The position numbers were made by a program, and so were the translations under genes. A stretch of 46,637 nt of DNA from a candidate division WOR-3 bacterium (lineage in GTDB: Bacteria; Hydrothermota; Tepidihabitantia; Tepidihabitantales; CAIPLT01), in contig JBDRUR010000003.1 of NCBI GenBank assembly GCA_039801485.1, positions 1 through 46,637 of the forward strand, in the 5' to 3' direction. Positions 18,624-31,922 of the stretch are shown in pieces. The stretch's first letter is position 1. The number at the start of each line of letters is the position of its first letter. The notes below the pieces were generated by a model that made no database searches, was not told where the DNA came from, and saw nothing but the letters and a program-made list of their open reading frames with translations.

Positions 18624-18706
18624 TGCCGAGGAGGGGAGTTGAACCCCTACGGTTTTTCACCACTAAGTCCTGAGCCTAGCGCGTCTGCCAATTCCGCCAC
18701 CTCGGC
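18624..18706 (-). tRNA. tRNA-Leu(CAG), CCA not encoded
   Basis: Acceptor stem GCCGAGG/CCTCGGC + A; D-arm TGGCGGAATTGGCAGACGC; anticodon arm CTAGG-CT-CAG-GA-CTTAG; long variable arm; T-arm AGGGG-TTCAACT-CCCCT. Confidence 0.97.
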
Positions 18707-25475: not shown

Positions 25476-25622
25476 GCATTTATTTTAATTTAGTAAGAGC
25501 GTATGCGTCTTGCTTTAAAATATAAAATTTGGTGCCAATTAGTTTACTGCACCTTTTTATTAAAAAGCGAGTCTAAATAAACAGAGAGACATTAAGTCTT
25601 TTATGATACGGTAGAAGTCATG

Positions 25623-25830
25623 CCCCTAATGCATTCGGGGAGTCAAAGTTGGGGGTTGGTTAGATCGGTGAATTAAAAAGAAGTTTGATTTTTGAAGACA
25701 TCGATAATTTGCTCAAAGTCAAAGAGTATCAATCTTTATCAGGGTAATTGTCAAAATTAAAAGCGGAACTACACTCAGCATCGAAGTTGGAATATGGCTC
25801 AGACAGCGATTCGGCATTGAGTTATGGATT
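25623..25830. repeat. Palindrome plus 12-nt phased array element, copy 1
   Basis: CCCCTAATGCATTCGGGG (25623-25640); 12-nt units starting tcag/tcaa/gcgg/tcag/ttgg/tcag/tcgg at 25739-25822. Confidence 0.65.
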
Positions 25831-25874
25831 GGATAAAAGATAAGGACAAGGTTTTGCGTCAAAAAACAAACATC

Positions 25875-27626: not shown

Positions 27627-30131
27627 GTGTTAACAATCATTCTAATAACATTATTGAATTTCAATCAAGACTCAATTTTGATGCGCGCTGGGAGTAACGC
27701 ACCCGAAATCAAAAAATTTATTGGCGAAGCCAAAGAGAATGGTTTTCAGGATTGGGCAGAATTTTTGCTTTCGGCAATGCCGGATGTTGATTTAGTTAAC
27801 CTAAAGTCAGCCGATTTTATCAATTACTTTCATGCCCTTAAGAAAAATTATGAAAGAGCCCCTTGGCGAAACAGGATTGATGATAACCTTTTTTACTATT
27901 ATATCCTACCTTATCGAGTCAGTCAGGAGCCATTAGAAAACTTTACTGCTTATTATGCCGACACCCTTTATCATCTTGTAAGAAAATCAAAGAATATGCG
28001 CGAGGCGGTTTTGCGGATAAATGAGTGGGTTTTTACCAAAATGAAATATGAACCAACTGAACAATGGGACCAAAATGCCATAACAACAATCAAACGCGGT
28101 ATCGGCAGATGTGAAGAGATGTCAATTTTATTTATCAAGGCATTGCGGACTGTTTGTATTCCCTGTCGTCATACTTACACACCTTGGTGGCCCTTTACTA
28201 ATTCGAATCATGCTTGGGTTGAAGTGTGGGCTGATGGTAAATGGCATTCGCTCGGCGGCGGTGAATTGACCGATTTAGACAATGCCTGGTTCCGAATTCC
28301 AGCACAACGAGCGGCAATTATTAAAAGCATTGTATATGGAGAAATAGCTGATAAGAAAGAAATGATTGATAGAAAAGACAAGAAATTTACGGTTATCAAT
28401 TCCACTCCGAATTATGGCGAAGTTGTCAAACTCAATGTTCAAGTCAGAAAAAATAATATACCAGTTGAAAGTGCCCAAGTCTCAATCAATGTTTATAACT
28501 ATTCTTCATTAGTACCAGTCGGCAGTAAAAAGACTGATTGCAATGGTTATGTTTATTGGGTGGTTGGTAAGACTGATCTGTTTATTTATGCTTATAAGGA
28601 TACAATGCTTGGCTATTATATTTGGCGACCAGCAAAGACAATTAACGATACTGTTGTTATTAATGTAACAAAAAGAGAGATACCTGATACATCGTTCTGG
28701 CTCTACACAAGAAAAATAAGCAGCAAAAATCCCAAGTCAAAATACAAACCCGATGTGGATAGGCTAAAAGAATTACAAAACCTTCATTTTAATTTTATAA
28801 ACATTGATAGTTTACTATTACAAGGAATTTCCGATACCGTGCTTAAGAGAATATTTAAAGATGCTAAAGCCAATGCGAGACCACTGATACAATTCTATTT
28901 TAGTCTACCTGATACTTTTAAAGATTTTTTTATTCATTATTTCAAAGTGCTTGTCTCAAAAGATATTGTTGCACTTGATACCACTGGGCTGTGTCAAGAA
29001 CTCTATGCAGTTAAAAAATCAATATTGATGGCTGATAAGCAGACACCGGACTCTATTATAAAAAATTATGTAATTCCCTCTCGTATTCTCTATGAACACC
29101 TTGATAAATGGCGTAATTATATTCAGCAGATAATTAATGATAATCTTCCTTTCGTTCAATCTTTGAATCTTTCAATCACTGAGAGAGTTGACAGCTTATT
29201 TTCTTGGGTTGAAAATAACATTGAAAAGAAAAAAACGGGTGATGCCTTTGGGCCGATGATGAATCCTTTAGATGTCGATAAAGCAAAAAGAGCAACTGAT
29301 ATTGAACGATATGTTTTTATTGTAGGTGTTTTAAGAAGTCAAGGCATCCCAGCAAGAATCAAATGGAGTTTCGACGCAGTTGAGTATTGGGACAATGGCT
29401 GGCAAGAAAAAAGATTTGAGCAGAAACAAGAAAAGAAAAATGTTTGGGTAGGAATAAAATTCAAACAGGATACAATAGATTTGACTTCCAATGCAAACTA
29501 TTATCAAGATTATAGCATTACCCGATTTAAAGAAACTACCGACCGGCTTGAACCAATAATTGATTCTCTAAACGGTTATCAAATCGTAACACTTGATTCG
29601 CAACCTTCATACATTATTTCTGGTTGGCGAAATGGATTTGGTGATACCTATGTAAGGCTCAAGAAATTCATTCCCGCCTCAGATACAACAAGAATCATAA
29701 TAAATACTGATATCCCAGAAGATATAAAACCCGGTGATCTAATTGTTCGCGAATATCGTGGTCTAATTGGCATAAACAAGTTGGGCATTAAAAATAAGGA
29801 TTTAGCATCCGGCAATGTTTTAATTGTTATCTTTGATACTGAATCCGAAGCAGCAAAATCAACTTTGCGAAATGCTTGGCAAGATATAAATTTATTCAAA
29901 GGCAAGGTTTATCTATTGGCAGTCACTAATGATAAGGAAAGGGCCCAAGTATTCCTGAAAGCAAATGATATCTATAAAGGCGGTCTTTATCTGATTACTG
30001 ATGCAATTTATAAGAATTGGGGTATTAGAGATTTGCCGTCGATTTTACTACTGAAAAACAATAAAGCAGTATTCTGGATTGAAGGCTTAAATCTACATCT
30101 GTCAAGTTTACTCCAGCATTTCCAAGAATAA
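27627..30131 (+). CDS. Exported transglutaminase-like domain protein
   Basis: YILPYRVSQEP, catalytic GRCEE and NHAWVEVW. A second TGase-like module (VIPSRILYE...LRSQGIPAR) and a C-terminal thioredoxin-like segment follow. Confidence 0.88.
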   Translation: MLTIILITLLNFNQDSILMRAGSNAPEIKKFIGEAKENGFQDWAEFLLSAMPDVDLVNLKSADFINYFHALKKNYERAPWRNRIDDNLFYYYILPYRVSQEPLENFTAYYADTLYHLVRKSKNMREAVLRINEWVFTKMKYEPTEQWDQNAITTIKRGIGRCEEMSILFIKALRTVCIPCRHTYTPWWPFTNSNHAWVEVWADGKWHSLGGGELTDLDNAWFRIPAQRAAIIKSIVYGEIADKKEMIDRKDKKFTVINSTPNYGEVVKLNVQVRKNNIPVESAQVSINVYNYSSLVPVGSKKTDCNGYVYWVVGKTDLFIYAYKDTMLGYYIWRPAKTINDTVVINVTKREIPDTSFWLYTRKISSKNPKSKYKPDVDRLKELQNLHFNFINIDSLLLQGISDTVLKRIFKDAKANARPLIQFYFSLPDTFKDFFIHYFKVLVSKDIVALDTTGLCQELYAVKKSILMADKQTPDSIIKNYVIPSRILYEHLDKWRNYIQQIINDNLPFVQSLNLSITERVDSLFSWVENNIEKKKTGDAFGPMMNPLDVDKAKRATDIERYVFIVGVLRSQGIPARIKWSFDAVEYWDNGWQEKRFEQKQEKKNVWVGIKFKQDTIDLTSNANYYQDYSITRFKETTDRLEPIIDSLNGYQIVTLDSQPSYIISGWRNGFGDTYVRLKKFIPASDTTRIIINTDIPEDIKPGDLIVREYRGLIGINKLGIKNKDLASGNVLIVIFDTESEAAKSTLRNAWQDINLFKGKVYLLAVTNDKERAQVFLKANDIYKGGLYLITDAIYKNWGIRDLPSILLLKNNKAVFWIEGLNLHLSSLLQHFQE

Positions 30132-30402
30132 TATACTAAAACTGAAATTATTCTTATCCTTCATCATTACTAATTATGATATTTAATAAAAATAAATTAG
30201 ATAGATAAAACTGGCAAAACGATTCAAACTTTTATTGAAATGGCAGGAATGATTCTTGAAGAAAATAAAAAAATGTGAAACCAAAGAGCCTTAAAAATCG
30301 TCTATATATAATATACTTAAAGAGCGGAAATTTATTAATTGGGGTCTAAAAACAACCATCCACTTTAATCATAAATCATATGAAGATACTGCTCTGGGCA
30401 TA

Positions 30403-30646
30403 CCCCGAATGCATTCTGGGAATGGGGTTCAGGCTCAGTTAAAATTTTAGTTTTAGACGCAGAACCCATTTCAGAATCGTGCTATAAGTCACACATAGCC
30501 AAAGACTAAGAATATTGGTCAGTATGATTGTTAGCCAGTGGGGGAGTAAGGTTTTCGGCAAGGTAACCAGCAAGGTGTTTAGCAAGGTGGTGGGCATTGA
30601 ACAGAGTATCAGACTAAGGAAGGGGGTTAGGATGGGATTTGGCAAA
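30403..30646. repeat. Palindrome plus 12-nt phased array element, copy 2
   Basis: CCCCGAATGCATTCTGGG (30403-30420); AG or GG at 18 of 19 positions spaced exactly 12 nt from 30425 to 30641. Confidence 0.85.
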
Positions 30647-30815
30647 AAATGCGTGATTAACAAGTTGCGCCCGCTTTTACTTATTCTCAATTTCCATCGC
30701 CAAATAACATTTTGTTAATAACTTAACGACAGAAATTATGTAATCTGATTGATAATCATAAAGCCGGAGTTTAGCAATATTGACGACATCTCGCTTTTTA
30801 ATTATTATATTGATT

Positions 30816-31922
30816 GTGAATATTTTGGCAATTAATTGGCGATGTATAAAAAATCCTTTGGCCGGCGGTGCTGAGATATATTTTCAGGAAATATTCAAAC
30901 GGATTGTTAAGATGGGACATTCGGTTACACAACTGGCGGTGATGTTTGACGGTGCTTTAGAAAAAGAGATAATTGATGGCATTGAGATTGTAAGACTCGG
31001 TGCGAAAAATACTTTTAATTTTACAGTTTATCGTGAGCTTCCGCATTTTTTAGAAGAGCATAATTATGATATTATCATTGATGATTTGAATAAAATACCA
31101 TTTTATAGCCCATGGCTTACTAAAAAGCCGGTCTTGGCATTAATGATGCATCTCTTTAGAAAAAGTATCTTTTCCGAAGTCTCGTTTCCATTTGCCAGTT
31201 ATGTCTATTTAATGGAAAGTTTAATTCCATTATGTTATAAAAATAATAATTTTGCGGCACTATCTGAAAGTTCAAAACAAGATTTGGTTCACTTGGGTAT
31301 TAAACCCGAGAAAATCACCGTGATACCGCCGGGCATTGATTTAACTCAATATCAACCCAATTTTGCAATTAAAGAAAAAAACTTGATTATTCATACCGGC
31401 CGAATTAAAAGATATAAATCAATTGACCATTTACTTTATGCAACTGAAAAACTTAGTCAGAAACGAAAAGATTTTAAGGTCGTCATTATTGGTGACGGCG
31501 ATGATTTGCCAAGGCTAAAGAACATTGTTCAAAAACTTAAAATTGGCAATCTGATAACTTTTACTGGTTATATTTCAGAACAAGAAAAATTGAGTTATTA
31601 TCAAAAAGCAACCGTGCTGGTCGAAAATTCGATAAAGGAAGGCTGGGGAATGATTGTGATTGAAGCTAATGCCTGCGGAACACCAGTGGTTGCGGCGCGT
31701 TCTCCAGGCTTAAAAGATGCAGTGCTTGACCAAAAGACAGGGTTTTTATATGATTATGGCAATATTGATGACTTGACAGGCAAAATTGAACTACTATTAG
31801 ATGACATCAAATTAAATCGTCAAATGGCTGAAGCCGGTATTGAATGGGCAAAGAATTTTAGTTGGGATAAATGTGCCAATGAAATGACGGATGTTATCGA
31901 AAAAACTGTAACTGGCAGGTGA
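30816..31922 (+). CDS. GT4 glycosyltransferase (start GTG 30816; the ORF-track TTG at 30780 is the -35 box)
   Basis: NILAINWR...PLAGGAE, GRIKRYK and KEGWGMIVIEANACG motifs; TTGACG-17-TATTAT lies 7 nt before the GTG. Confidence 0.92.
   Translation: MNILAINWRCIKNPLAGGAEIYFQEIFKRIVKMGHSVTQLAVMFDGALEKEIIDGIEIVRLGAKNTFNFTVYRELPHFLEEHNYDIIIDDLNKIPFYSPWLTKKPVLALMMHLFRKSIFSEVSFPFASYVYLMESLIPLCYKNNNFAALSESSKQDLVHLGIKPEKITVIPPGIDLTQYQPNFAIKEKNLIIHTGRIKRYKSIDHLLYATEKLSQKRKDFKVVIIGDGDDLPRLKNIVQKLKIGNLITFTGYISEQEKLSYYQKATVLVENSIKEGWGMIVIEANACGTPVVAARSPGLKDAVLDQKTGFLYDYGNIDDLTGKIELLLDDIKLNRQMAEAGIEWAKNFSWDKCANEMTDVIEKTVTGR

Follow-up and report, generated by a model that had tools for sequence, protein, structure and literature searches.

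An ECF-promoter-linked family of phase-locked 12-nt arrays in a candidate division WOR-3 bacterium: a possible assembly track for a protein

What kind of constraint would hold the spacing of a non-coding array to the nucleotide while letting its sequence diverge is the question raised by a short intergenic segment in a 46,637-nucleotide (nt) stretch of DNA (the window; contig JBDRUR010000003.1 of assembly GCA_039801485.1) from a candidate division WOR-3 bacterium. An earlier note, made from the letters of the window, had described AG or GG dinucleotides (RG, where R is a purine) recurring every 12 nt beside an 18-bp palindrome, and had offered three explanations, namely (a) a minus-strand Rho site followed by a hairpin, (b) a platform for a ring- or filament-forming protein, and (c) an array of variable units processed from a non-coding RNA. 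Our analysis makes it very probable that the array is one copy of a dispersed, non-coding family of elements linked to a promoter of the extracytoplasmic function (ECF) sigma type, whose length and 12-nt phase are under selection. More tentatively, and with as yet more doubt than conviction, we read the array as a phased assembly track for a protein, the candidate binder being the product of a small gene that we call geneX.

At positions 30425+12k (k = 0 to 18) the window carries 14 AG, 4 GG and a single TA (30485), that is RG at 18 of the 19 positions from 30425 to 30641, which reproduces exactly the counts of the earlier note. The best-phase RG fraction is 0.95 for period 12 and 0.31-0.67 for periods 6-11 and 13-18, and none of 20,000 mononucleotide shuffles of the segment attained 0.95 (the shuffle maximum being 0.68), so that the periodicity is significant. 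Tandem Repeats Finder has no entry at the array, which, taken together with the phased RG, indicates that the units have spacing in common more than sequence, in agreement with what the note had proposed. The composition of the array is equally distinct, with a GC content of 0.434 against 0.28-0.33 in the flanks up to 30880, and a GC skew of +0.354 against about 0 in the flanks. The palindrome at 30403 is present, although 30403-30420 (CCCCGAATGCATTCTGGG) is a near-palindrome and not a perfect one. The features of the window that concern this account are the following.

30276 to 30304, plus strand: promoter of the ECF sigma type, with -35 TGAAAC at 30276-30281, a 17-nt spacer and -10 CGTCTA at 30299-30304, preceded by an A-rich tract.
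30305 to 30402, plus strand: AT-rich, poorly conserved leader, which in this subfamily carries a GGGGTCTAAAAA box at 30341-30352.
30403 to 30420, plus strand: near-palindrome or hairpin, with a CCC..GGG stem, GA..TC and a GCA-containing loop.
30425 to 30652, plus strand: phase-locked array made up of 19 12-nt units (the family model has 18), with RG at position 0-1 of the unit; the purine-rich strand.
30439 to 30690, minus strand: 83-codon open reading frame (ORF) with Leu or Pro at every fourth residue, judged to be a by-product of the nucleotide pattern.
25551 to 25851, plus strand: second, divergent copy of the element in the window (nhmmer E 7.5e-44; palindrome at 25623-25640 by regular expression; covariance model R1, 65.1 bits).

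Far from being unique, as the earlier note had implied, or lacking the further copies on which that note had staked its view, the array is one of 39 homologous copies in its genome. BLASTN of the region against its own assembly (G000: 1.50 Mb, 115 contigs, 90.8% complete; other G numbers denote relatives of the same order) returned six further copies at 68-82% identity; a profile made from these copies found 32 copies and, after two iterations, 39 matches at E<1e-4, 30 of which are full-length over a model of about 340 nt. Together the roughly 39 elements make up about 1% of the 1.5-Mb genome. All copies are intergenic, none of the 39 being overlapped by an ORF of at least 120 aa, and several abut contig ends. 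The neighbouring genes vary from copy to copy and the orientation of the element relative to them is not fixed; among the 33 copies with an upstream ORF, 20 sit upstream of a divergently oriented gene with a TTGACA box 33-140 nt off, and the second copy of the window lies between a divergent 999-aa ORF and a 503-aa ORF. The element boundaries showed neither terminal inverted repeats nor target duplications. Another dispersed short repeat with the look of a miniature inverted-repeat transposable element (MITE) or a repetitive extragenic palindrome, with inverted ends GTCATTGCGAG ... CTCGCAATGAC and core AGCAATCTC, is found just past several arrays; in G000 the GTCATTGCGAG-ended repeat lies downstream of an array on contigs C88, C34, C1, C66, C54, C44, C8 and C31.

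Within the family the spacing is almost invariant. Of the 510 unit intervals in the 30 full copies (taken as raw distances between phased columns), 505 are exactly 12 nt, and 25 copies have zero indels over 204 nt. The copy on C7 lacks precisely one 12-nt unit, the only whole-unit change, that on C18 has a compensating +1 and -1 two units apart, and the deviations in the last unit are one 11-nt interval in C25 and one 10-nt interval in C39. Each unit opens with RG and follows the consensus AG.A(T/A).G..TT(C/A). Outside AG, units of different copies are 0.52 identical when they share the same index and 0.34 when they do not, and there is no super-period of 24 or 36 nt among the lags of 2-11 units examined; likeness by index and the lack of a super-period together point to an old structure with 18 individually recognizable units, and to judge from the aligned copies the array is indeed of fixed size and has undergone no recent expansion. 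Processed variable units, the third option of the earlier note, fit these same figures poorly.

The genome-wide scan for period 12 that the note had called for, here a model-free lag-12 autocorrelation, gave 31 regions at a threshold of 0.15, 27 of them inside this family, and 0 regions in a block-shuffled genome. A lag-12 excess of 0.15-0.17 was also recorded outside the profiled family at C7:34669-34884, C22:11665-11880 and C26:205-408 of G000. The note's remark that no named element matches the array holds as far as Rfam and the open-access literature go: cmscan of the whole window, including both element copies, returned at gathering scores only a tRNA at 18624-18706, the open-access full-text literature contains no description of such 12-nt arrays, and two papers on WOR-3 genomes make no mention of repeats, of tandem or intergenic elements, of small or non-coding RNA, or of sigma. 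The public sequencing runs that contain DNA of the locus are hot-spring metagenomes, none of the runs listed for it is an RNA run, and contigs from four such metagenome runs cover parts of the locus or its paralogues.

The minus-strand ORF at 30439-30690 claimed by the earlier note exists, and its phased Leu/Pro codons are, as claimed, never TTA or TTG in this copy; in seven close copies, however, 2 of 133 phased sites are TTR (CAA, TAA). The view that the constraint acts on nucleotides and not on a protein is borne out by stops, codon usage, missing starts and the ratio of nonsynonymous to synonymous polymorphism (pN/pS). A copy has on average 3.8, 5.6 and 4.3 stops across the array in the three plus frames, compared with 1.7, 3.2 and 8.8 in the three minus frames, and in any one frame at most 1 of the 30 copies is free of stops. 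The lowest number belongs to the minus frame that reads Leu (a mean of 1.67 per 72 codons, one stop being at a conserved site), where the 3' 132 nt contain 8 stops against 11.4 expected from the base composition of each column. In this frame pN/pS among subfamily members is 0.66, inside the 0.65-1.12 of plainly non-coding frames and segments, so the check for a conserved coding signature in an overlapping ORF found none. In the copies on C88, C34, C4, C45 and C54 a stop at the array edge closes the frame and no ATG, GTG or TTG follows for 18-22 codons, while the C66 copy has no such start at all. Codon usage is also foreign to the genome, with 15% TTR among Leu codons and 69% AAC among Asn codons, compared with 62% and 23% in the 624 long ORFs, and a search of Pfam and of 5.8 billion proteins gave neither a family nor a homologue for the ORF of the window. 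The base that precedes AG varies freely, like a wobble position, and in the 3' half of the array the column entropy has its maximum at every third position (0.83/0.97/1.44). In the arrays of the relative G016, by contrast with what a reading frame would give, the hexamer AATAG(G) is invariant even at the would-be synonymous positions of every frame, and the constraint is therefore on nucleotides, as far as comparison of copies can tell.

The best-conserved part of the family alignment is its 5' end, consisting of an A-rich tract, TGAAAC(C)TTTT, about 17 nt and (C/A)GTCTATATA. In the copies that reach this end, TGAAAC(C)TTTT ... (C/A)GTCTA has the make-up of an ECF-type promoter, its consensus equalling that of B. 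subtilis, for which an excerpt of a published study gives -35 tGAAACnTTTt and -10 CGTC or CGTA and assigns such an autoregulatory promoter to each sigma gene (PMC5758882). The regular expression TG[AC][AC]AC-N16-19-GTCTA has 29 sites in the genome, 26 of them at element 5' ends, 2 elsewhere and 1 on contig C64, about 150 nt upstream of a gene for an ECF-type sigma factor (Sigma70_r2 plus r4_2); a similar box precedes a 44%-identical sigma gene in G006, and the regular expression has no match upstream of two other ECF-type genes of G000 (C32, C57). Because the promoter motif of the element also stands upstream of this sigma gene, we infer that transcription starts from the element promoter, with the C64 sigma probably reading the purine-rich strand of each element. 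The promoter points toward that strand in all copies that retain it, which would place the hairpin 5' of the array, and the first option of the earlier note, a minus-strand Rho site with the hairpin behind it, is not supported, the only conserved promoter driving the other strand.

Several observations adjoin the promoter. The two motif matches outside elements are at about 18070 (minus) on C20 and about 22733 (plus) on C7 of G000, and the C20 site, which has an upstream A-tract, may be another target of the C64 sigma. In the leader that separates the sigma gene from its ECF-type promoter there are two conserved G-runs (GGGGGAGGGG ... GGGGGTGGGGG; G000:C64 650-800 and G006:C47, L041 about 2060-2200), and this leader may be structured or G-quadruplex-like in both genomes. 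The GGGGTCTAAAAA box of the element leader recurs near arrays of G016. On the minus strand, 30831-30804 matches a sigma-70-like promoter (TTGCCA-16-TATAAT, 11/12) that points from the start of a glycosyltransferase gene toward the array and overlaps the plus-strand promoter of that gene; to go by this match, a minus-strand transcript could pass through the array.

Over 30 copies the three outer pairs of the hairpin are C-G in 22-30 of 30, with G-C in 22/30 and A-T in 26/30, whereas the fourth pair is variable (C.A 13, T-A 7, C-G 3), and RNAalifold keeps the 3-bp CCC/GGG stem only. For the array, mutual information over the copies reveals no Watson-Crick covariation, and folding energies do not depart from those of shuffles (z of -0.77 and 0.03 for the two strands), the minimum free energy being -31 kcal/mol on the minus strand and -50.4 kcal/mol on the other. 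With no conserved RNA fold in the array, a structured RNA is a poorer fit than a linear binding track. No terminator was detected by a scan of 30000-31000. In 12 of 33 copies the array is followed by an A-tract..T-tract hairpin, as against 10.6% of random AT-rich windows; this hairpin, being enriched but not general, is not called a terminator here.

Relatives tell the same story with other letters. Searched by BLASTN against 30-40 genomes from the same family and order, two copies gave matches of chance size only, and an exact 18-mer of the hairpin region has 5 single matches in public genome contigs and 3 in metagenome contigs, with no element found by nhmmer around any of them. A sequence-only covariance model (11 units, 27 copies), whose sensitivity to other unit sequences is limited, detected arrays in 10 of 40 relatives, namely 18 matches in G016, 10 in G032, 2 each in G006 and G015, and 1 each in six genomes. 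These arrays keep the 12-nt phase over 16-28 units and differ in unit consensus: the G006 consensus is AGGATTGG.TTC, in arrays of 18 units with a similar hairpin; G016 has AG.A....(G/C)AAT and a very purine-rich AGTAAGGGATAG, the latter also present in G019; G032 has AGCGTASTTGTC and GGACGYATSRGG. Since relatives share the phase and not the units, phase and size outlast sequence and are, on this comparison, conserved at an evolutionary depth where sequence is not. Outside the order, a 150-genome sample of the phylum yielded three weak single matches, and the two inspected lie inside long ORFs and are false positives. In G016, a purine-rich array and an AATAG-type array stand in tandem about 150 nt apart at L084 and L086 (C57, C40), L083, L087 and L088; the arrays are then followed by a conserved box (AAAAATCC.ATAAGT..TGT.AAATCAA), GGGGTCTAAAAA and a 9-bp A/T hairpin with a T-run, an architecture unlike that of G000.

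Spacing of this kind suggests a binding partner, and the candidate is geneX, a WOR-3-specific family of proteins of 121-128 aa (about 125 aa) with no Pfam domain and few database homologues, whose source name is 'candidate division WOR-3 bacterium'. In G000 the gene is found at C31 3713-4087 (L095 1205-1591), with paralogues at C63 7596-7943 and at about 22080-22352 on C17, and of the 41 genomes of the order a seven-member profile detects the family in 40, each with 2-23 copies, G000 having 4 matches. An AlphaFold (AF2) model built from a 7-sequence alignment has a predicted local distance difference test score (pLDDT) of 83.8. When the model was compared with 48,161 PDB representatives, only 5 chains reached a Z of at least 8, all of them major capsid proteins of filamentous archaeal viruses (AFV1 ORF140 12.0, SSRV1 11.6, SIRV 10.4, AFV1 ORF132 10.3 and AFV1 virion 9.3, over 76-115 aligned residues), a ranking to be read in the knowledge that helical bundles can reach a Z of up to about 13 by common arrangement alone. 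SIFV (7.9) and SFV1 (7.5) come next, among unrelated chains at 7.7 or below. The model has a long N-terminal helix and a C-terminal four-helix bundle superposable on the coat proteins of SIRV2 and AFV1, subject to the same helical-bundle caveat, and we regard an Adnaviria coat-protein fold for geneX as probable, not proven, on the strength of this prediction. The open-access full-text literature describes no bacterial relative of the Adnaviria coat protein, and tblastn of geneX against 50,697 phage records gave no match. Beside the C63 paralogue lies a 192-aa ORF (G000:C63 6913-7224; L096 ORF 1421-1999, minus) with a DPVTK-type 8-residue repeat that produces a lag-12/24 signal, and with a weak match to Abi_alpha (E 7e-4, below the cut-off).

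The link between the fold and the array is a number. In an excerpt of the structural work on AFV1 and SIRV2, coat-protein dimers wrap A-form DNA and 12 bp per repeat fitted best (PMC5517147), and an excerpt of an ICTV profile describes the same wrapping by dimers in Adnaviria and a capsid fold found so far only in archaeal viruses (PMC12282232); it is because the matching viral proteins wrap 12 bp per dimer that we connect geneX with the 12-nt phase.

Genomic position gives this connection some substance. geneX lies at most about 0.5 kb from an array at G000:C31, at the orthologous locus G006:C12, and at G011:C1, G032:C14 and G032:C13. At G000:C31, at G006:C12 and in G002, a promoterless array stands directly downstream, in sense, of a gene for a Y-family polymerase (dinB), with geneX (125-128 aa) between polymerase gene and array in G000 and G006 and absent from that place in G002; the dinB-geneX-array locus is syntenic between genera. 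geneX also lies just downstream of a homologue of the C64 sigma gene in G006, G012, G022 and G019. In G000 the sigma gene stands at the start of contig C64 and a geneX paralogue at the end of C63; oriented as they are, they would have this same gene order, and contigs C63 and C64 presumably join. Arrays adjoin the sigma homologue in G016 and G006, and in a model-free lag-12 scan the score reached 0.18 or more at three of the 14 geneX loci, at two of the seven sigma loci and at six of the eight positive controls, but at none of the 19 other loci.

The reading that we favour would then run as follows. In each element an ECF-sigma-type promoter is followed by an AT-rich leader, then by a short hairpin or palindrome, and lastly by 18 units, each exactly 12 nt long. 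The fixed phase and fixed unit number of the element would be the footprint of a protein whose copies line up next to one another along the tract, with a binding unit for every 12 nt; its substrate would be duplex DNA, or else an A-form duplex (RNA:DNA or RNA) that arises when the promoter is active. The candidate partner is geneX, with its predicted coat-protein fold and the 12 bp per dimer of its viral counterparts. A protein track is preferred because unit length is constrained while unit sequences have diverged (the 505 of 510 intervals above). Of the three options of the earlier note it is accordingly the second that we would retain, with geneX added as predicted partner. A bolder form, which we think unlikely, is that the ECF sigma transcribes into 216-bp strips on which the coat-fold protein assembles along an A-form duplex, of DNA or of the purine-rich RNA with DNA, giving local virus-like superhelices that would serve as stress-switched chromatin or insulators. 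The function of the element, with the 12-nt phase as a protein footprint and geneX as binder, is what we infer.

A number of observations weigh against geneX as the binder or against a duplex-DNA track. Eleven of the 14 geneX loci have no array within 1.5 kb; arrays were detected in 11 of 41 genomes (G000 included) and geneX in 40 of 41, a loose co-occurrence even with the limited sensitivity of the model; and G000 has about 39 arrays for 4 geneX matches. An ECF-like motif was present upstream of geneX in 1 of 6 regions read (G011 only). A position downstream of an ECF sigma gene is the classic place of an anti-sigma factor, which a small helical protein found there would resemble. Regarding the fold, Foldseek against PDB and BFVD puts the same coat-protein family on top with all E-values at or above 0.6, the geneX profile against PDB sequences finds the SIRV2 coat protein at a non-significant E of 0.91 (collinear, 7-82 with 5-84), and the Z scores fall within the reach of helical bundles in general. 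Finally, a duplex-DNA binder needs neither the strong purine/pyrimidine asymmetry of the array (GC skew +0.35) nor its fixed orientation relative to the promoter.

Among the explanations that do without geneX, the one we take most seriously, while considering it less likely than the track, is that the purine-rich strand represents a small, ECF-sigma-dependent RNA, about 300 nt long, that acts alone as a sponge or regulator. Its UUMAGRAU units, which in the 3' third take the Shine-Dalgarno-like form AAGGA(U/G), would serve to titrate a pyrimidine-rich RNA, the anti-Shine-Dalgarno sequence of the 30S subunit or an RNA-binding protein. Such an RNA would account for the promoter facing the purine-rich strand wherever it is retained, for the missing structure in the array, for AAGGAT/AAGGAG every 12 nt in the last units and the purine-rich AGTAAGGGATAG units of G016 and G019, for the sense-oriented, promoterless and thus 3'-untranslated-region-like array of the dinB-geneX-array locus, and for the excess of A-tract..T-tract hairpins after the array; a sponge, however, needs a number of motifs and not a phase, which leaves unexplained the zero indels in 25 of 30 copies, and the unit consensus differs between genomes so strongly as to be odd for pairing to conserved 16S rRNA. 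Nor was Hfq or CsrA found in G000, the latter passing the cut-off in 1 of 20 relatives, which is neither of the array-rich G016 and G006; a CsrA-sequestering RNA in particular was dropped on this ground and for want of conserved stem-loops in the array. The elements might instead be selfish, MITE-like dispersed repeats that carry a promoter and whose 12-nt rhythm goes back to an ancestral tandem duplication, with gene conversion keeping it uniform, as their dispersal over about 39 intergenic sites, the contig ends at several of these, the free orientation to neighbours and the other repeat family often just downstream would allow. We hold this to be improbable, since the boundaries show neither terminal inverted repeats nor target duplications, since copies at about 65-80% identity with almost no indels are unlike the product of neutral decay, and since the same phase and size, in other sequence, persist across families of the order, with the dinB-geneX-array locus syntenic between genera.

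The two remaining explanations look to the minus strand. That it encodes small hydrophobic proteins in which every fourth residue is Leu or Pro is suggested by the low stop count of the Leu frame, the wobble-like base before AG and the three-base entropy rhythm, and is made very improbable by what was found on closer comparison, i.e. a stop shortage predicted by composition, a pN/pS like that of non-coding sequence, starts missing in several copies, codon usage unlike that of the genome, the lack of any Pfam family or homologue, and G016 synonymous positions that do not vary. We give least credence of all to an idealized Rho-loading (Rho utilisation, rut) site with C every 12 nt that insulates neighbouring promoters from read-through, notwithstanding a minus-strand RNA that is C-rich, G-poor and weakly folded, a pyrimidine 5' of the phased C in about 63-74% of units, the 20 of 33 copies upstream of a divergent gene with a TTGACA box, and Rho in all 20 relatives searched. 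It is the opposite strand that the only conserved promoter drives; some relatives' arrays, e.g. the AGCGTASTTGTC units of G032, are not C-rich on either strand in that sense; and no Rho RNA-binding domain was found in the 90.8%-complete G000 assembly, a point against the first option of the earlier note as well, although the gene most likely lies in the unassembled 9%. We know of no rut site that needs an exact phase or a fixed length.

Several known systems resemble the element in part. In geometry one parallel is the partition array: parC and tubC consist of direct repeats of 10-12 bp (12 bp in tubC) thought to be coated by a protein that polymerizes in register, and like the iterons bound by ParR and TubR the units here are tandem, without spacers and beside a promoter. 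Partition arrays occur once per replicon, whereas here there are about 39 chromosomal copies with varying neighbours, each of 18 units with 3-8 conserved bases, a strong strand asymmetry and an ECF-type promoter; no gene for ParM, ParR, TubZ or TubR was noted near the arrays, in a survey that included no search aimed at partition genes. With the filaments of Adnaviria (SIRV2, AFV1) the element shares a 12-bp register, the best fold match of geneX and a thermophilic habitat, many members of the order within WOR-3 being thermophiles; it differs in that the viral proteins coat a whole genome without sequence preference, while the track here is a short sequence-phased array and geneX is chromosomal, bacterial, present in 2-23 copies per genome and without a match in the phage collection. 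With the sponge RNAs CsrB and RsmZ its RNA would share a length of about 300 nt, numerous purine-rich (A)GGA-like motifs and perhaps, if the prediction made here is right, control by a stress regulator, and it departs from them in motifs that lie outside hairpin loops, in an exact phase, in tens of paralogues and in a CsrA that is absent or rare in the order. The likeness to rut sites is one strand that is C-rich, G-poor and unstructured with C about every 12 nt, and the unlikeness is a promoter that drives the other strand, together with the exact phase and fixed size. CRISPR (clustered regularly interspaced short palindromic repeats) arrays have units of 55 nt and more. They, and the arrays of tandem interspaced guide RNAs (TIGR), resemble the element as non-coding series in which short segments, some conserved and some variable, have a promoter on one side; here, though, the period is 12, a super-period of 24 or 36 nt is lacking, copies are homologous even in their 'variable' parts, and no effector gene is conserved beside the copies, no search having been aimed at Nop-domain genes. 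An excerpt on TIGR arrays gives units of 36 nt with two alternating repeats of 8-12 nt, 9-nt spacers and an adjoining Nop-domain gene (PMC12045711). A guide array of the TIGR or CRISPR type, in which identical repeats would alternate with unrelated spacers, was rejected on the lack of a super-period at lags of 2-11 units and the homology of same-index units.

If the track reading is right, the arrays would constitute a new class of bacterial genome element, in which tens of dispersed, fixed-length, phase-locked arrays are tied to a single alternative sigma factor and have a geometry that points to a particular protein partner; in its bolder form, if true, the reading would add a new kind of sequence-phased bacterial chromatin element and would give the Adnaviria capsid protein its first cellular relative. 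Quite independently of the arrays, the predicted fold of geneX would be the first of its kind reported in a bacterium. That these elements escape Rfam, tandem-repeat finders and BLAST between genera illustrates that periodicity scans can find what similarity searches miss. The relationship between geneX, its arrays and the archaeal viral coat would, if true, bear on the origin of the Adnaviria realm and on the way in which DNA is protected or organized in thermophiles.

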